IMG/VR virus record: IMGVR_UViG_2778261463_000017 | Coordinates: 1-9,315 of that record | Direction: 5' to 3' (one strand) | Source of the DNA: a virus | Taxonomy: Duplodnaviria; Heunggongvirae; Uroviricota; Caudoviricetes | DNA length: 9,315 nucleotides | Part shown: piece by piece, positions 1,975-8,889 of the stretch | Position numbering within the stretch: position 1 is the stretch's first letter | How the letters are laid out: every line of letters begins with the position of its first letter | Notes under the pieces: generated by a model | Database searches by the model: none | What the model was told of the DNA's origin: nothing | What the model saw: only the letters and a program-made list of their open reading frames with translations | Program-made: the position numbers and the translations under genes

Positions 1975-2121
1975 TGGTGTGAGGTGTAACGCAATGAACA
2001 TAACAAAAAGCGCCCCGTTGCCGGAGCGCCCTTGTGAACAATTAACCTGCTGCGAAAAAAATGGATCAGTGCAGGGGAATTATATCAACCGTGTGACGAA
2101 GCGCCACAATTGCCGGATAAC

Positions 2122-2153
2122 AGGCAAAACAAAGGCCACCTGCTACGGTGGCC
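2122..2153 (-). terminator. candidate rho-independent terminator for the reverse-strand repressor gene
   Basis: Perfect 7-bp stem GGCCACC / GGTGGCC (2134-2140, 2147-2153) with a 6-nt loop; on the minus strand it is followed by TTTGTTTTG. Lies about 100 bp downstream of the stop at 2257. Confidence 0.4.
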
Positions 2154-2256
2154 ATTCGACACAAGCTACACGTTATCCCCAACGCAAGAGAGATGATTAC
2201 TATGCCGTGATTACATCCGGTTGGCAATGTGATCAGTGTGCTGGCTTGCTGGTGGG

Positions 2257-2562
2257 CTATTCCTGCTCTTTGGCTTTGCGCCGCTGGAGTTCTTCACGCG
2301 CAACGGCGACGAGTTGCCCGATCTCCTCGGCAGCTTTGACACCGATTTTTTCCACCTGCGCCAGTGCATCGAGCGAAGAAACCAGGGGATTTTCTCCTCT
2401 TCCTTCTGCCTGGCGGCGGGCGATCTCACCACGCATGGCGGTTACTATGAATCCGGCGTTGCTTTCGCCGTCCAGTTTTACGGATTCCATGCCATCAAAA
2501 GCATCATGTGGGATACGAATTGAAATCTGTTTTGATTTGTCGTTGATAGTGTTTTTTGCCAT
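2257..2562 (-). CDS. putative ribbon-helix-helix DNA-binding protein (candidate island repressor)
   Basis: 101 aa from MAKNTINDK...; the segment KQISIRIPHDAFDGMESVKL...NAGFIVTAMRGEIARR fits a beta-strand/helix/helix RHH pattern, followed by a charged helical tail. GGAGA Shine-Dalgarno 6 nt before this ATG. The longer 2257-2601 start is rejected because it has no spacing to the SD. Confidence 0.55.
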   Translation of the reverse strand: MAKNTINDKSKQISIRIPHDAFDGMESVKLDGESNAGFIVTAMRGEIARRQAEGRGENPLVSSLDALAQVEKIGVKAAEEIGQLVAVAREELQRRKAKEQE

Positions 2563-2584
2563 GTGCATTCTCCTAAACAAAATA

Positions 2585-2660
2585 TGTGATTCAGTATACA
2601 CAAAAAAGAATCACAAAAAATACTTGACCTGTGATTCAGTTGAATTTAATTTAAATCACA
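2585..2660. promoter_or_regulatory. divergent promoter/operator region between RHH gene and icd-like gene
   Basis: Two inverted-repeat pairs TGTGATTCAG...GAATCACA (2585-2615) and TGTGATTCAG...AAATCACA (2630-2660); a -35-like TTGACC (2624-2629) with TAATTT 17 bp downstream, overlapped by the second palindrome. Confidence 0.5.
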
Positions 2661-2685
2661 CCTCAGTAAGAGGATGTAAACGACA

Positions 2686-2719
2686 ACGCCCCGAACTGTT
2701 TGCGGCAGTAGCGGGGCGT
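2686..2719 (+). other. stable hairpin in the icd leader (candidate structured regulatory RNA element)
   Basis: 8-bp GC-rich stem ACGCCCCG (2686-2693) / CGGGGCGT (2712-2719) with an 18-nt loop containing an inner CTG/CAG stem; no T-run follows, so it is unlikely to be a terminator. Confidence 0.3.
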
Positions 2720-2755
2720 CTAACCACCAACGATAGCGAAAGTATCGAGGTAGCT

Positions 2756-2950
2756 ATGAGAAATCATACCACACACCCGCAAGGGCGGGACTCGCACAAC
2801 CTGAATAAATACATCTGGCGTTTTATCGCCCTGAGCACGGCACAACCGCGCGTGATTCACATCGTGGCCACCAGCGAACAGGAAGCGCGTCAGCAATCTC
2901 CTGATGGCTGCGTGATGGTATTGGCCTCCAGATTTCATCATCGCTGTTTG
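2756..2950 (+). CDS. Icd-like (host cell division inhibitor-like) small protein; 3' end undefined because the frame has no stop until 3988
   Basis: ATG at 2756 with GAGG Shine-Dalgarno; MRNHTTHPQGRDSHNLNKYIWRFIALSTAQPRVIHIVATSEQEARQQ resembles Icd-like proteins of P4-like elements as I remember them. Downstream of ~2950 the same frame becomes Cys/Arg/Ser/Phe-rich and un-protein-like, so the end given here is approximate, not a stop codon. Confidence 0.45.
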
Positions 2951-3132
2951 TTTTTTGTCTGTCTCTCCTCGGGGTATGGGGTTGTGCCGTTCCAGCGTAT
3001 GCGGGGCCGTTCACTGATGAAGCGCTCAAGCGGGAAATTATCGGATGGCGCGGGGGGCCGTACCCGTCGTTCCCGCCTCCGCTGGCGTACCACGCTGGCT
3101 TCGGTAATTTCCCCTGATTCGTTTATTTTCAT
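2938..3132 (-). CDS. small Arg/Pro-rich protein, paralogue A of a three-member mini-gene family
   Basis: 64 aa (MKINESGEITEASVVRQRRRERRVRPPAPSDNFPLERFISERPRIRW...); strong GGAGGT Shine-Dalgarno 8 nt upstream of ATG; shares the RRERR...PP.P...FPLE.FI..R.R pattern with the ORF at 3376-3546. Confidence 0.3.
   Translation of the reverse strand: MKINESGEITEASVVRQRRRERRVRPPAPSDNFPLERFISERPRIRWNGTTPYPEERQTKNKQR
3014..3033. repeat. dispersed direct repeat copy A (CTGATGAAGCGCTCAAGCGG)
   Basis: One of three copies of CTGATGAAN(3)CNNNAGCGG; 17/20 identical to copy C and 15/20 to copy B. Confidence 0.5.
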
Positions 3133-3175
3133 AAAGAGTTACCTCCGTGCTCATCTGCTCTGGCGTTTTCTGTTT

Positions 3176-3195
3176 CTGATGAAGACTTACAGCGG
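3176..3195. repeat. dispersed direct repeat copy B (CTGATGAAGACTTACAGCGG)
   Basis: 162 bp downstream of copy A (a multiple of 3); the most diverged copy, with a stop in the minus-strand reading. Confidence 0.45.
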
Positions 3196-3207
3196 TAGCG
3201 GCGTATC

Positions 3208-3324
3208 TTATTTTAAGATTTGGTTTAATTTCTCGTGTCTGGCTTTAATGACGGCGCGTAATAATATCTGTCGCTGCTTTGTGTTTACGTCCAGAACTGT
3301 GGGGGATAATATGGATTTGTTCAT
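3208..3324 (-). CDS. short ORF (38 aa), possibly a truncated paralogue B of the mini-gene family
   Basis: MNKSILSPTVLDVNTKQRQILLRAVIKARHEKLNQILK; AGGTGA Shine-Dalgarno 5 nt upstream of ATG; stops just before repeat copy B. Uses AT-rich codons (ATA, TTA), which weakens the call. Confidence 0.2.
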   Translation of the reverse strand: MNKSILSPTVLDVNTKQRQILLRAVIKARHEKLNQILK

Positions 3325-3375
3325 GGTGCTCACCTGTAATGCATTGCGTCGTGATGCCTCATATCACGGCGGCGG

Positions 3376-3546
3376 TTATCGTTTTGTTCGGATTCGTCCC
3401 CTGATGAAATCCTCAAGCGGAAAATGTTCAGGGCGAGGTAATTCAGGAGGGACAGGGTTATTACTCATGCGCTCACGTTCCCTTGCGGCGCGTGCAGCAT
3501 TCAGCTTTTGCAGGAGCACATCAAACGGCACCCCCTTATCATTCAT
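3376..3546 (-). CDS. small Arg/Pro-rich protein, paralogue C of the mini-gene family
   Basis: 56 aa (MNDKGVPFDVLLQKLNAARAARERERMSNNPVPPELPRPEHFPLEDFIRGRIRTKR); G-rich Shine-Dalgarno-like run before ATG; C-terminal half aligns with the ORF at 2938-3132. Confidence 0.3.
   Translation of the reverse strand: MNDKGVPFDVLLQKLNAARAARERERMSNNPVPPELPRPEHFPLEDFIRGRIRTKR
3401..3420. repeat. dispersed direct repeat copy C (CTGATGAAATCCTCAAGCGG)
   Basis: 225 bp downstream of copy B (a multiple of 3); differs from copy A at three adjacent positions only. Confidence 0.5.
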
Positions 3547-3700
3547 GGTCCCCCCTGTATATCCGTTGTTAACTGATGGTTACAGGTGCATTTTTCGCAC
3601 AAACTATTTAATCAACACATCCGACCACATTATCAGAGAGCCGGAATATACAGGGGCAATAATCCCGCATTTGCTGGCCTACGCACAGCTTACCGCTGAT

Positions 3701-3988
3701 ATGGCACTGAATGAGGCCAAAGCCATCCTGATTGCTGATTGTGAATATGGGGTTATGCGTGATGATCGTTTTAATGCCCTGAAACAGGAATTTGATGGCA
3801 CACCGGAAGATACAGATATTGCGCTGTTATGTGTTGCTGACATGGTAAAAGCTGCATGTTTTTTACTGGAAACCGCCGAACATTCAGGAACGGGTAGCGA
3901 TATTCTCAATATTGCGTCGGACTATGCTGAATATGTGGCAGAGGCGCGTTACAGAAGAAAATTCCAGGAGGTGGTTAGCCATGAATAA
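3701..3988 (+). CDS. hypothetical acidic protein, first gene of the replication operon (true start may be upstream)
   Basis: 95 aa (MALNEAKAILIADCEYGVMRDDRFNALKQEFDGTPEDTDIALLCVADMVKAACFLLETAEHSG...) with protein-like composition, unlike the upstream part of the same frame. No convincing Shine-Dalgarno at 3701; the stop overlaps the next gene's start. Confidence 0.5.
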   Translation: MALNEAKAILIADCEYGVMRDDRFNALKQEFDGTPEDTDIALLCVADMVKAACFLLETAEHSGTGSDILNIASDYAEYVAEARYRRKFQEVVSHE

Positions 3989-4185: not shown

Positions 4186-4485
4186 ATGAAAAAGAAAAAT
4201 TCTGGCTTTACTGCCAGCGGCCCCGCTCGGCCTGAAATCCGTCCCGGCGATATTTTCCGTGATAACTACGGCGGTACGGTAACGATTAAAGGCGTGGCAG
4301 AACGGCGCATCACTTACCGCCGTGATGGCTACGAATATGACTGCGTGATGCCTGTTTATCAGTTCCGGCGTGATTTTTCTCTGGTACAGGCAGCGCCCCG
4401 CAGTAAACCAACCAGCAGGGAGAAAGCACGCGCCAATATTCAGAAGATGAAAACCATGATTAACGGATTCAGGGATAAAAAATGA
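4186..4485 (+). CDS. hypothetical basic protein (prophage-associated small protein of unknown function)
   Basis: 99 aa (..GDIFRDNYGGTVTIKGVAERRITYRRDGYEYDCVMPVYQFRRDFSLV..); AGGAAA 8 nt upstream; stop overlaps the primase start (ATGA). Family identity not established. Confidence 0.55.
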   Translation: MKKKNSGFTASGPARPEIRPGDIFRDNYGGTVTIKGVAERRITYRRDGYEYDCVMPVYQFRRDFSLVQAAPRSKPTSREKARANIQKMKTMINGFRDKK

Positions 4486-5897
4486 AACTGGCACCGAACT
4501 TAAAAAAACAGCCACACAACAAAATGACCGAAGTCATTATTTTTGCAGGTAGTGATGCCTGGGCGCACGCAAAACAATGGCAGGAACAGGACGGGCGACT
4601 TGCTGGCGATAACGTCCCGCCAGTATGGCTGGGAGACAGTCAGCTTGACGAACTGGCAGACCTGAAAATTATCGACGATGGTCGCTATTGTGTCCGGCTG
4701 TACAAGGCAGGCCACATCAAGCCATCAAATATTAATGCCATCGGGCAAAAACTGGCGGCGGCAGGTGTACGGGATGCGAGTTATTACCCCGAGGGAATGC
4801 ACAGCCAGAAGCGGGAGGAATGGCGCGACTACCTGCAACGGATCCGCGAACAGGCAGAGCGCGGGGAAATACTTACTGATGAGCAATACAGCCAGCGAAA
4901 AACCACGCTACCCATGAGCATTGGATCTGCAGGATACGACACACAGCTTGATTATGTCGTTAAGGGCGTGATTCCGGCTAATTCATTGTGCAGCACATAC
5001 GGTGCGAGCGGTTCCTATAAATCATTCCTTGCGTGTTCCTGGGCGTGTCATGTTGCCACGGGGCGCCACTGGGGAGGCCGCAGGGTGGCGCATGGTTCGG
5101 TGATGTATGTTGTCGGTGAAGGTGGCATTGGTGTCCCCCGTCGTATCAAGGCATGGGAAATCGTTAATGATGAACGGGTGAAAAATCTGTACCTGGTAAA
5201 CCGCCCGATTTTTCCGGCAGCCCCGCTTGATGTTGATGAAATGGTTATCGCTTCCCGCCAGGTTGAACGGGAAACGGGTAAACCGGTACGCATGATTATT
5301 CTGGATACGCTGGCGCGTTGCTTTGGCGGTAATGATGAAAATGACGCGCGGGATATGGGGGCGTTTATCCGTGGATGTGACGACCTGAAACGACGCACAG
5401 GGGCCACGGTGCTGGTGGTCCACCATTCCGGCAAGGATGAAACAAAGGGGGCGCGTGGTTCCAGTGCATTTCGTGCATCTCTGGACGCTGAATACCGTAT
5501 TCGCCGAGAAGGTGCAGACAGTAAAGCCCTGGTTATATCCTGCACCAAAATGAAGGACGCGGAGGAACTGAAAGAGGCCGCCTACGATTTACGCGTGGTG
5601 GAGCTTTTTACCGACGCTGACGGGGAGTTAATCACGTCGCTGGTGGTGGTGGATAAGCCGCGCACTCCCGTTGAACTGGAGCGCATCGAGGAGGCAGGCA
5701 ACAAGACGGAAAACCATACCGCGCTATGGCAGTGCATCAGAACGCGAACAGCACACGGGGAGGCGTGCACTATCGCCCTTCTCCGCGACGATATGAAAAA
5801 GCTGGGGTATGAGATGAAGCACTTCCGGCGCTGGCTGTCCAAGCTGGAAAAAGACGGCGTGATTTGTGTCGATGGGGATGATGTTTACCCACTGTAA
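4482..5897 (+). CDS. replication initiator: primase-like N-terminal domain fused to a RecA-like AAA ATPase (PICI pri-rep type)
   Basis: 471 aa; Walker A GASGSYKS, Walker B-like MIILDTL, and an HHSGKDETKG block typical of RepA/DnaB-like AAA ATPases; AGGGA Shine-Dalgarno 6 nt upstream; iteron array immediately downstream. Confidence 0.85.
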   Translation: MKLAPNLKKQPHNKMTEVIIFAGSDAWAHAKQWQEQDGRLAGDNVPPVWLGDSQLDELADLKIIDDGRYCVRLYKAGHIKPSNINAIGQKLAAAGVRDASYYPEGMHSQKREEWRDYLQRIREQAERGEILTDEQYSQRKTTLPMSIGSAGYDTQLDYVVKGVIPANSLCSTYGASGSYKSFLACSWACHVATGRHWGGRRVAHGSVMYVVGEGGIGVPRRIKAWEIVNDERVKNLYLVNRPIFPAAPLDVDEMVIASRQVERETGKPVRMIILDTLARCFGGNDENDARDMGAFIRGCDDLKRRTGATVLVVHHSGKDETKGARGSSAFRASLDAEYRIRREGADSKALVISCTKMKDAEELKEAAYDLRVVELFTDADGELITSLVVVDKPRTPVELERIEEAGNKTENHTALWQCIRTRTAHGEACTIALLRDDMKKLGYEMKHFRRWLSKLEKDGVICVDGDDVYPL

Positions 5898-6098
5898 AAA
5901 GTGGGTAGTAAAAGTGGGGAGAGTGGGGAATTTAACAAAATTGAAACATAATTCCCCACTTTCCCACCTGTATACATCCAAAAAAGTGGGGAGTAAAAAA
6001 CGCAATGAAAAACAAAGCATTAGATTCACTCAAAAAACGAGGTGGGGAGCAAGTGGGGAATTTAAAAAGTGGGGAGCAAAAGTGGGGAGTGGTGGGGA
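5898..6098. repeat. iteron-type replication origin (GTGGGGA repeats flanking AT-rich spacers)
   Basis: About ten copies of GTGGG(G/T)A in direct orientation (5901, 5914, 5923, 5986, 6032, 6043, 6069, 6082, 6092) and two in inverted orientation (5952-5968), with an 18-bp unit AGTGGGGAATTTAA(C/A)AAA present twice and an A-rich segment 5993-6030. Confidence 0.7.
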
Positions 6099-6350
6099 AT
6101 GAACAGAAAAACCAGAGATAAGACAGCGCCAAAATATAAAGCGTTAGACATGACAGAGCACGCCTTAAAGGTGGCAATCAGAACGATAGACCGCCACGCC
6201 GGAGAAGGATACGCGAAAGCACATCCCGAACTGATAAGTGCATTCATGACCACAGCGGCGGCAAACTTTGCCACGCTGACAGAACGGGAGATTGCCGAAG
6301 CAGAACAGGTAACAACCATCAATGTTAAAACCGGAGAGCAGACAGCATGA
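6099..6350 (+). CDS. hypothetical small protein (start uncertain)
   Basis: 83 aa from MNRKTRDK...; stop overlaps the ssb start (ATGA). The putative start sits inside the last iteron, so the start is insecure. Confidence 0.45.
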   Translation: MNRKTRDKTAPKYKALDMTEHALKVAIRTIDRHAGEGYAKAHPELISAFMTTAAANFATLTEREIAEAEQVTTINVKTGEQTA

Positions 6351-6757
6351 CAGCACAGATAGCGGCTTACGGGCGGCTGGTGGACGACCCGCAGACAAAA
6401 CAGACCAGTAAGGGTACACCGATGACGCTGGCGCGTATGGCGGTATCTTTACCATGCGGCCAGGCACAGGACGGACAGGCGACGTTATGGTTATCGGTCA
6501 TCGCATTTGGCAAACAGGCCGACTTTCTGGCTAAACATCAAAAAGGCGACGTTGCCAGCGTATCCGGCACGATGCAGGTCAGCCAGTGGACCGGACAGAA
6601 CGGGGAAACGCGGCAGGGTTATCAGGTCATTGCAGACAGTGTAATCAGTGCCCGTGCTGCACGTCCTGGCGGGAGCAGACGCACAACCACAGGCACACAG
6701 GGGAATAAGCCACCAGCGGGAGGCGATGACCCTTACGGTGATGATATTCCGTTCTGA
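6347..6757 (+). CDS. ssb: single-stranded DNA-binding protein (SSB)
   Basis: 136 aa; OB-fold-like N-terminus (GRLVDDPQ..., WLSVIAFGKQADFL, QWTGQNGETRQGYQVIADSV), a Gly/Pro-rich linker and the acidic C-terminal tail ending DDIPF characteristic of bacterial/phage SSBs; GGAGAG Shine-Dalgarno. Confidence 0.8.
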   Translation: MTAQIAAYGRLVDDPQTKQTSKGTPMTLARMAVSLPCGQAQDGQATLWLSVIAFGKQADFLAKHQKGDVASVSGTMQVSQWTGQNGETRQGYQVIADSVISARAARPGGSRRTTTGTQGNKPPAGGDDPYGDDIPF

Positions 6758-7280: not shown

Positions 7281-7487
7281 ATGGCAGAAGAGAAAAAAGG
7301 CGGGGTGACGGTCTACATAAGCCCCGACATCGTGGAGGCGCTCAAGGAACGCCACCAGCAGAATGTAAAAGCAGGCATTGCGGCAGGACTTGATCCGCTG
7401 GCGATGGTTGAGCCGTCAACAGGCTGGCAGGTGCGCACCTATTTACGTGCGGCGCTGGGTATCAATCAGGTTCACGGAGGTGAATAA
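7281..7487 (+). CDS. small hypothetical protein, first gene of the capsid operon
   Basis: 68 aa (MAEEKKGGVTVYISPDIVEALKERHQQNVKAGIAAGL...); AGAGGA Shine-Dalgarno; its TAA overlaps the capsid gene ATG by one base (TAATG). Confidence 0.5.
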   Translation: MAEEKKGGVTVYISPDIVEALKERHQQNVKAGIAAGLDPLAMVEPSTGWQVRTYLRAALGINQVHGGE

Positions 7488-8542
7488 TGACAGGCAAAGC
7501 AACGGCACTTACAACTAACCAGCTTTTCGCGTACCTGAATCGCGGGGATATTGCGGATTTTAAATTCAGCCCTCTGTTTACCACGCTGTTTTTCCCGAAC
7601 GTGGCGACCTTCAACACCCAAAACATCATGCTGGACACCCTGGACATTGAAGAGGTTACGATGTCAGCGTTCTGTTCGCCTATGGTGGGTAGTCAGGTCC
7701 AGCGCGATAAAGGGTACGAAACCAGCACGATTAAACCCGGCTACATGAAGCCAAAGCACGAAATCGATCCAACAAAGACCATCATGCGCATGGCTGGAGA
7801 AGATCCGGCACAGCTTAACGATCCAACTTACCGCCGTATGCGCCTGATTACTGGCAACATGCGCCGCCAGATAAACGCCATTAAGGCGCGCGTGGAATGG
7901 CTGGCGGTGAATGCGGTAACGACCGGAAAAAACATCATTGAGGGCGAAGGCATAGAACGCTATGAAATCGACTGGAAAATACCGGAAAACTGCATCATAC
8001 AGCAGGCCAGTGGTAAAAAATGGTCCGAGCAGGATAAAGACATGCACGACCCAATCTATGACATCGAGCTTTATGCTGATCAGGCAGGTTGCCCCGCCAA
8101 CGTCATGATTATGGGCGGTGAGGTATGGCGCACATTACGCAGCTTTAAAAAATTCCGTGAACTGTACGATCTTTCGCGTGGCTCAGAATCCGCCGCCGAG
8201 CTGGCCTGTAAAAACCTGGGCGAAGTGGTGAGCTTTAAAGGCTATCTTGGTGATCTGGGCCTTATCGTCTATTCCGGCAAATACACTGACAGCGACGGCA
8301 CCGAAAAATATTTCCTTGAGCCTGATTTGCTGGTCCTGGGTAACACCAACAATAAAGGGCTGGTGGCCTATGGTGCGATTATGGATCAGGAAGCGGTAAG
8401 AACGGGCGCAACGCAAAACATGTACTACCCGAAAAACTGGATTGAGGACGGCGATCCGGCGATTGAGTACGTGCAGACGCACAGCGCACCGCAGCCGGTA
8501 CCGGCAGATATTCGCAAATTTGTTACCGTCAAAATTGCTTAA
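7487..8542 (+). CDS. lambda gpE-like major capsid protein (HK97-fold MCP family)
   Basis: 351 aa; colinear similarity to lambda gpE as I recall it (KFxPLF..LFF near the N-terminus, PGYMKPKHE, RRMRLI..NMR, KWSEQDK, RSFK, GSESA, VSFKGYLGDLGLIVYSGKY, VLGNT, YPKNW..GDPA); strong GGAGGTG Shine-Dalgarno. Confidence 0.85.
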   Translation: MTGKATALTTNQLFAYLNRGDIADFKFSPLFTTLFFPNVATFNTQNIMLDTLDIEEVTMSAFCSPMVGSQVQRDKGYETSTIKPGYMKPKHEIDPTKTIMRMAGEDPAQLNDPTYRRMRLITGNMRRQINAIKARVEWLAVNAVTTGKNIIEGEGIERYEIDWKIPENCIIQQASGKKWSEQDKDMHDPIYDIELYADQAGCPANVMIMGGEVWRTLRSFKKFRELYDLSRGSESAAELACKNLGEVVSFKGYLGDLGLIVYSGKYTDSDGTEKYFLEPDLLVLGNTNNKGLVAYGAIMDQEAVRTGATQNMYYPKNWIEDGDPAIEYVQTHSAPQPVPADIRKFVTVKIA

Positions 8543-8553
8543 CGGGGGATTCT

Positions 8554-8889
8554 ATGGACGCTCCATACATTGAGTTATTTTCAGGCAGCCAGCAGGTATC
8601 CACGACGCTGGTACATTTTGCCGCTGATGCTGGCGTTATTCAGGAATTTACCCCGCTGATGCTGGCAGACAATGGCGAGTTTAAGGCGTGGGATGGTCAG
8701 GAATCTGGCAAAGCTGTTTATCTGACTTCGCACCCCGTGGACACGTCAAAGCAGAAATCAGCACAGTGTTACAAAACGGGGATATTCAATATTGCCGCCG
8801 TTAACTGGCCTGATAGCGTCGACACCGATGCGAAAAAATGCGCCGCCTTTGCGGGTTCCGGCGTATCCGTTCAGCCGCTGGCCCGATAA
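8554..8889 (+). CDS. lambda gpD-like head decoration protein
   Basis: 111 aa; PLMLADNGEFKAWDG, YKTGIF, VNWPDSVDTDAKKCAAFAGSGVSV parallel the gpD blocks PLMLD..AWDG, YKSGTF, WPEA..ETKKRTAFAGTAISIV. Confidence 0.7.
   Translation: MDAPYIELFSGSQQVSTTLVHFAADAGVIQEFTPLMLADNGEFKAWDGQESGKAVYLTSHPVDTSKQKSAQCYKTGIFNIAAVNWPDSVDTDAKKCAAFAGSGVSVQPLAR

Follow-up and report, generated by a model that had tools for sequence, protein, structure and literature searches.

Positions 5898-6098 of the window (the whole 9315-base stretch of DNA that was analysed) very probably constitute the vegetative replication origin of a classical phage-inducible chromosomal island (PICI), a phage satellite of E. coli, and we propose a mechanism in which this origin is driven by Rep, the product of the gene immediately upstream. 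Our computational analysis reveals in this interval a dense array of short repeats with a layout that is conserved among relatives, a base within the repeats that switches in concert in all copies of an array, and a one-to-one link of that base with residue 447 of Rep, a residue that lies in a domain modelled with a winged-helix fold.

Results

Repeat array between rep and orf83

The window has nine exact copies of the 7-nt core GTGGGGA in its 9315 bases (+ strand, eight; − strand, one), and all nine lie inside 5914-6098, a span of 185 nt; dinucleotide-preserving shuffling gave a mean of 1.06 copies and a maximum of 4, with none of 200 shuffles reaching nine. When one mismatch is allowed, the region yields two more copies, GTGGGTA in direct orientation (5901-5907) and GTGGGAA in inverted orientation (5961-5967). 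With these degenerate copies the array holds nine direct and two inverted repeats, exactly the numbers that an earlier note on this DNA had put forward as a minimum when it described a dense GTGGGGA array here. The parts of the array are as follows.

5898-6098, strand not applicable: predicted origin, the whole rep-orf83 intergenic region, with the array; GC skew +0.405
5901-5929, + strand: left iteron cluster, with GTGGGTA at 5901-5907 and GTGGGGA at 5914-5920 and 5923-5929
5953-5967, − strand: inverted iterons, GTGGGGA at 5953-5959 and the degenerate GTGGGAA at 5961-5967
5969-5976, strand not applicable: TGTATACA palindrome, the TATA(T/C)A element; it lies in the 26 nt that separate 5953-5959 from 5986-5992
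5986-5992, + strand: direct iteron, partner of 5953-5959 in a divergent pair
5993-6041, strand not applicable: A-rich central spacer of 49 nt, 55% A and 69% A+T
6042-6098, + strand: right iteron cluster, with GTGGGGA at 6042, 6053, 6069, 6082 and 6092
6084-6089, + strand: GGGGAG, likely to serve orf83 as Shine-Dalgarno sequence; it falls in the fourth right-hand iteron, 9 nt before the ATG at 6099

The repeats are embedded in longer duplicated units. The right-hand copies are spaced 11, 16, 13 and 10 nt from start to start; an 18-nt unit, AAAAAGTGGG(G/T)AG(T/C)AAAA, which the earlier note had reported as duplicated, occurs not twice but three times (5896, 5981 and 6064); a further unit of 17 nt forms a pair at 5922/6052; and a 46-nt duplication relates the left cluster (5895-5940) to the right cluster (6063-6108) with 80% identity. 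An inverted look-alike at 5886-5892 was rejected as a repeat copy: it sits in the final rep codons (V-Y-P-L-stop), and we regard it as coding sequence because CCCAC or CCAC is found there even in relatives with GTGAGG repeats.

The array runs up to the next start codon, as had been claimed, the terminal repeat (6092-6098) directly abutting the ATG at 6099. The further proposal that the initiator could gate translation from this position found no support: the last repeats simply supply the Shine-Dalgarno sequence, the abutment is not universal in relatives, and any effect of an initiator on double-stranded DNA would be on transcription at most. It is also very improbable that the G-rich repeats act by DNA or RNA structure, either as G-quadruplexes formed from the eight GGGG runs on one strand or as a structured leader in the orf83 mRNA that governs its translation. 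The layout persists in relatives whose repeats, GTGAGGA or GTGCGGCA, have no GGGG runs, the loops, at 6-12 nt, would be long for a stable quadruplex, the next gene lies hundreds of nucleotides away in some relatives, and a search of Rfam returned no family match; against these observations stand the strong strand asymmetry of the interval, the five GGGG runs within the 57 nt of 6042-6098, and the overlap of the final repeats with the ribosome-binding site.

DnaA boxes are not enriched in the window and none lies within 5898-6098; the only two matches with two mismatches are at the rep end, at 5873-5881 and 5885-5893, just upstream of the array. A classical iteron plasmid origin of the Rep_3/RepA-pi-TrfA kind is defined by 17-22-bp iterons, one or more DnaA boxes and a WH1-WH2 initiator without helicase activity, and we rejected this assignment on account of the 7-nt core, the lack of DnaA boxes in the array and the AAA_25 helicase initiator encoded next to it.

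Rep is a RepA-family helicase-initiator

The gene upstream of the array had been called a primase in the earlier note. Its features correct that label.

4482-5897, + strand: rep, a 471-aa RepA-family helicase-initiator by Pfam, PDB and RefSeq matches
4482-4874 (aa 1-131): Rep N-terminal domain
4935-5441 (aa 152-320): Rep AAA_25 core, Pfam E=8e-44
5694-5894 (aa ~405-471): Rep C-terminal domain, predicted winged helix
5820-5822, + strand: His447 codon (CAC); the residue, the predicted reader of base 4 in the repeats, marks the N-terminal edge of the putative recognition helix, K446-H447-F448-R-R450-W451

AAA_25 is the sole Pfam match in Rep; among solved structures the nearest in sequence is RSF1010 RepA, a helicase (PDB 1G8Y, E=4e-5, aa 154-319), and RefSeq names the homologues "helicase RepA family protein". 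We found in Rep no recognisable primase catalytic domain of either the TOPRIM/DnaG or the AEP/Prim-Pol type, and the PHROG "primase" matches map to the helicase part or to a non-catalytic N-terminal stretch. The PICI papers call the gene in this slot "pri-rep".

The N-terminal ~131-133 aa gave no significant Pfam or PDB sequence match. Residues 1-131 share 61% identity with the N-terminal end of Pri-Rep from EcCICFT073 (L087:2242-2640), a protein that is otherwise unrelated to Rep, being of SF3 type with D5_N, DUF5906 and Pox_D5 domains. The N-terminal domain is thus a module common to both Rep types; it is modelled as alternating strands and helices with a pLDDT of 82-92.

The C-terminal ~70 aa are modelled as three helices and a beta-hairpin (core pLDDT 92-95, domain-only mean 85). 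The model resembles the winged-helix domains of DtxR/IdeR, LexA, Fur and MCM with TM-scores of 0.6-0.66 and an rmsd of ~2 Å, at Foldseek E-values that are weak (0.06-0.3), as is usual at so short a length. A helix spanning residues 448-457 is present in the Rep models. On the basis of these models we confidently assign the C-terminal domain a winged-helix fold, in which residue 447 directly precedes helix 3. The full-length Rep model is poor in the helicase core (pLDDT 67), and a Foldseek search with this multi-domain, low-confidence model was uninformative.

Conservation of the array and its layout

We compared 167 homologous loci: 80 loci with Rep homologues came from bacterial contigs of other Enterobacterales, one genome per species, with genera that include Xenorhabdus, Pectobacterium, Serratia, Morganella, Pantoea, Erwinia, Kosakonia and Citrobacter; the further loci were 80 from IMG/VR and several E. 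coli contigs. An array of like design occupies the homologous interval of about 150 of 164 related loci, in the 260-300 nt following the rep stop. Its core is specific to lineage (GTGGGGA, GTGAGGA, GTGGGGGA, GTGGGGGC or GTGCGGCA) and its layout is constant: two to four direct copies, a spacer, one or two inverted copies, a fixed spacer of 24 or 26 nt and one direct copy make up the first half, and a spacer of 50-60 nt followed by four or five direct copies makes up the second. Six loci (L022, L033, L069, L071, L072 and L076) have no recognisable array in the 300 nt past the rep stop; they may be decayed elements or have their origin elsewhere.

Conservation within the layout is uneven. The positions of the left cluster are kept among relatives, with a switch from G to A in those that carry Asn447, and both inverted iterons (5953-5959 and 5961-5967) vary with the repeat type. 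Of 67 distinct 24- or 26-nt spacers, 64 hold a hexamer of the TATA(T/C)A kind, as against 8% of background windows, and the TGTATACA element at 5969-5976 does not vary among E. coli-type relatives. An A-rich central spacer, which the earlier note had counted among the elements of the origin, is present at 5993-6041, but its sequence is not conserved between relatives, and the most conserved part of the origin, judging from these alignments, is instead the divergent iteron pair (5953-5992) that brackets TATA(T/C)A. We regard the divergent pair and its TA-rich hexamer as a candidate for the first opening site that is at least as good as the A-rich spacer.

Further motifs occur in the central spacers of some relatives. 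Three Xenorhabdus loci (L003, L009 and L016) contain a second divergent pair, AATTCCTCAC...CAGTGAGGAA, in the central spacer ~137-165 nt past the rep stop; therefore, the number of divergent pairs differs between lineages. The motif CTGAAAnCC(N4-8)CATTACTGG is found in the central spacer of some origins with other repeats, and even with another Rep family; it occurs in the EcCICFT073 origin (L087:4170-4235) and, about 85-120 nt after the rep stop, in L029, L031, L034, L038, L040, L075 and L079. It could be a host-factor or priming site, and it is absent from the window.

Rep residue 447 co-varies with base 4 of the repeats

In the core GTG-N-GG, base 4 switches in all copies of an array at once. 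In the alignment of E. coli-type elements, five direct positions and one inverted position all show AAAAGTG.G unchanged around the dotted base, which is G throughout in some elements and A throughout in others. The residue that follows this switch is the X of a K-X-F-x-R-W motif immediately before the third helix of the winged-helix domain, residue 447. Among 89 distinct Rep C-terminal domains the pairing was:

Asn447: base 4 is A, 35 of 89 domains
His447: base 4 is G, 24 of 89 domains
Lys447: base 4 is G, 21 of 89 domains
Ser447: base 4 is C, 8 of 89 domains

The lone exception to this rule is a locus without a real array, and a neighbour-joining tree of the domain shows ~10 coincident changes of residue 447 and base 4. 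The rule also correctly predicts the repeats of two published PICIs, EcCI042 (K-N-F, GTGAGG) and EcCI11128 (K-H-F, GTGGGGA).

The same pairing holds in 58 distinct full-length E. coli-type Reps (His with G in 32, Asn with A in 26), where column 447 alone reaches a normalised mutual information of 1.0 with the repeat type and the runner-up column reaches 0.37. The C-terminal domain and the origin are adjacent, and part of the association between Rep and origin reflects their co-inheritance. However, columns 459, 462 and 469, which lie physically between codon 447 and the origin, score only 0.29-0.37; because columns nearer the origin score lower, linkage alone cannot explain the peak at 447. 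In the three control proteins, DUF4222, orf83 and SSB, the best normalised values were 0.26, 0.63 and 0.24, respectively; the orf83 signal does not extend past codon 4, in the stretch that adjoins the array, and each of the three proteins has identical copies that are found with both repeat types.

Taken together, the co-variation, the controls and the structural models strongly, though indirectly, support binding of the repeats by the winged-helix domain of Rep and a contact between residue 447 and base 4. We consider it somewhat more probable than its converse that a one-residue/one-base code (447 His or Lys with G, Asn with A, Ser with C) sets the specificity of Rep for its origin across this widespread enterobacterial family of PICI replicons, and that this code has been rewritten repeatedly, with ~10 repeats changing together.

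Two observations extend the picture of the repeats. In L085 and nine similar IMG/VR loci, the Rep motif is D-T-K-H-L-K (F448L, R449K) and only GTGGG of the repeat is kept, positions 6-7 being degenerate, which suggests that residues 448 and 449 help to read the 3' part of the repeat. We found no support, in a small sample, for avoidance of a shared repeat type by co-resident islands; such islands often share it, as do L118/L120/L122 from IMG/VR and L012/L014/L080 from Xenorhabdus, and repeat switching therefore shows no sign of preventing cross-talk within a cell.

The co-variation also bears on whether the repeats are operators for Rep, AlpA, PerC or a helper-phage protein that control orf83-ssb-perC-capsid, instead of or besides serving replication, a reading that we regard as improbable. 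The array does lie between two co-directional genes and reaches the orf83 start, the conserved TATA(T/C)A resembles a −10 hexamer, and plasmid iteron-binding initiators commonly autoregulate. However, the repeat type follows the Rep residue and no column of DUF4222, orf83 or SSB; a simple scan of the + strand in 5600-6400 found neither a sigma-70-like promoter nor a terminator; and the layout fits the experimentally defined position of PICI origins. A pure transcriptional operator is therefore unlikely, and a secondary effect of Rep binding on read-through transcription is possible.

The island is a classical PICI

All genes in the window lie on the + strand and run rightward. Those that surround rep and the predicted origin are listed below.

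1-1242, + strand: int, tyrosine integrase
1768-1974, + strand: alpA
1979-3988, + strand: long ORF with an Icd-like segment, 669 aa, GTG start, directly after alpA
4186-4485, + strand: DUF4222 protein
6099-6350, + strand: orf83, conserved hypothetical protein of 83 aa, first gene past the predicted origin, full-length phrog_1231
6347-6757, + strand: ssb, the island's own single-strand DNA-binding protein, replication module, Pfam SSB E=1.5e-16
to 7040, + strand: PerC, in a frame that opens at 6648; relatives are 82-106 aa long
7487-8542, + strand: lambda-E-type capsid protein
8554-8889, + strand: head-decoration protein

The orf83 start at the ATG at 6099 agrees with RefSeq and with full-length phrog_1231. 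The order int, alpA, DUF4222, rep, origin, orf83, ssb, perC, capsid, decoration is that of EcCICFT073, EcCI042 and EcCI11128; Table S1 of Fillol-Salom et al. 2018 (PMC6092414) includes the latter two. Of 5426 complete E. coli genomes, 1647 have a sequence resembling 5700-6400, the best match being 97% identical; a megablast search of the window against a phage database gave no match. The 97%-identical element of E. coli LH50-c is ~11 kb long and lies between tRNA-Pro/yejM and yejO, and after perC/proQ it carries only capsid, decoration and hypothetical genes before the chromosomal yejO.

PICIs are marked by int at the left end, alpA, one-way rightward genes, a length of ~11 kb, an att site of their own and the lack of tail and lysis genes; the window, read together with its 97%-identical relative, fits this description, and the island is a classical PICI of the EcCICFT073/EcCI042 type. 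The capsid and decoration genes had first suggested a capsid-forming PICI (cf-PICI), which would carry its own terminase, portal, protease and connectors; we rejected this assignment, as judged on the 97%-identical full-length relative, since full-length relatives lack terminase and portal and match classical PICIs.

The long ORF at 1979-3988 has matches limited to aa 235-320 (Icd-like, phrog_6196) and aa 548-668 (phrog_2512), and PADLOC gave no match for it or for the small ORFs. EcCICFT073 and EcCI042 have four or five small ORFs in its slot, so the long ORF, inside which the AT skew reverses, may have arisen by fusion or be an accessory gene that was inserted. Just upstream of alpA, at 1663-1702, two copies of a 20-nt direct repeat, AAAACAGTGAGTACCGTTTT, share 90% identity and form a candidate operator for the helper-phage inducing signal.

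It is extremely improbable that the array is a packaging site (cos/pac-like, for terminase) or a recombination site (integrase arm). It is internal, 4.6 kb from int and not at an island end; this island type has no adjoining terminase gene; the repeats co-vary with Rep and with no packaging gene; and rep-adjacent arrays are also found in elements with very different downstream modules. What speaks for such a site is that short repeated protein-binding sites also typify cosB and pac sites and att arms, and that PICIs of this type are packaged from cos sites (PMC6092414).

Discussion

Fillol-Salom et al. 2018 (PMC6092414) locate the origin of Gram-negative PICIs directly 3' of rep, where an AT-rich region has one set of iterons on either side. 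The window reproduces this arrangement: the rep stop is at 5897 and the array extends over 5901-6098, before orf83 (orf83/85 in these islands) and ssb, with a left set (5901-5992) and a right set (6042-6098) around the 49-nt spacer (5993-6041). The proposal of the earlier note that an iteron origin is placed here as in PICIs is thus strongly supported by synteny, by the published PICI work (PMC6092414) and by the co-variation with the Rep residue. Within this group the GTGGGGA array of EcCI11128 is nearly the same as that of the window, and EcCI042 combines GTGAGG repeats with a Rep of 86% identity; the Rep of both is of the RepA type, as in the window, whereas EcCIATCC25922 and EcCIRM13514 carry a D5-type Pri-Rep instead.

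EcCICFT073 has the only origin of this group that has been tested experimentally. Its rep-ori segment maintains a temperature-sensitive plasmid at the restrictive temperature, and in this plasmid test a rep mutant gave no colonies and deletion of the origin gave significantly fewer (PMC6092414). It differs from the window in having an unrelated SF3-type motor (D5_N/DUF5906/Pox_D5), so that only the N-terminal 131 aa are common to its Pri-Rep and our Rep, and in its repeats, GGTAGAYA/TGTCTACC, which occur in both orientations.

Comparison with SaPIs provides a second point of reference. SaPI Rep is an initiator and a self-loading helicase whose C-terminal winged-helix domain binds iterons, and the SaPI origin has 6-12 short iterons right after rep (PMC9371898). 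Both systems have the origin downstream of rep, and SaPI iterons of 5-6 nt are split around an AT-rich centre, some of them in opposite orientation; in the window, 9 of 11 copies point one way and the two inverted copies are together in the left half. SaPI Reps are AAA+ helicases of SF3 or SF6, whereas the Rep described here has a RecA-type AAA_25/RepA core.

Two further replicons resemble the window in part. The alpha protein of satellite phage P4 has a C-terminal winged-helix origin-binding domain that recognises 8-nt repeats, and P4 is likewise an enterobacterial satellite whose multi-domain replication protein acts through a C-terminal winged helix on short ori/crr repeats; however, alpha combines a primase with an SF3 helicase, the P4 ori and crr lie apart from each other and do not directly follow the gene, and alpha has no sequence similarity to Rep beyond what the PICI papers call "distant". 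In the IncQ plasmid RSF1010, whose RepA is the closest solved relative of the helicase core, RepA is not known to have a DNA-recognition domain and a separate protein, RepC, binds 20-bp iterons; in the window, helicase and predicted origin-binding domain are fused, the repeats are 7 nt long, and no homologue of RepC or RepB was found.

We propose the following sequence of events. Helper-phage induction would switch on the rightward operon through AlpA (PMC6092414; 10.1101/2022.09.08.507074), and Rep would be made. Rep, as a RepA-family ring helicase, would recognise the (AAAA)GTGGGGA repeats through its C-terminal winged-helix domains, His447 at the start of the recognition helix reading base 4 in each repeat. 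Rep assemblies on both clusters and on the divergent pair around TGTATACA would then distort and open the AT-rich DNA between them; the Rep helicase would load itself, the island SSB would coat the single strands, and host primase and polymerase would complete initiation. The SaPI Reps and the EcCICFT073 experiment are the analogies from which we infer Rep binding, the melting step, helicase self-loading and the part played by host enzymes.

The architecture of such an origin was already published in 2018, and islands with this very Rep type are in the tables of that paper (PMC6092414). Within the literature searched, no relevant mention of GTGGGGA as an iteron came up, and GTGGGG is absent from the supplements of PMC6092414, a paper whose Fig. 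2a shows iteron sequences. On this coverage, an explicit repeat sequence for the RepA-type replicon may be new, as may the conserved divergent pair with its TATA(T/C)A core and a one-residue/one-base specificity rule with repeated concerted switching.

None of these results overturns current understanding. The annotation locates the predicted origin and initiator of one of the commonest E. coli satellite replicons, the "primase" label is corrected, and the divergent pair around TATA(T/C)A offers a place to look for DNA opening. The rule that links residue 447 to base 4 is a simple, falsifiable handle that could predict cross-replication of co-resident islands or be used to build orthogonal replicons. 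If the code is true, a single H447N change together with G-to-A edits of the repeats would yield orthogonal, designable replicons, and these islands would provide a tractable natural case of protein-DNA co-evolution that needs concerted change at many sites.
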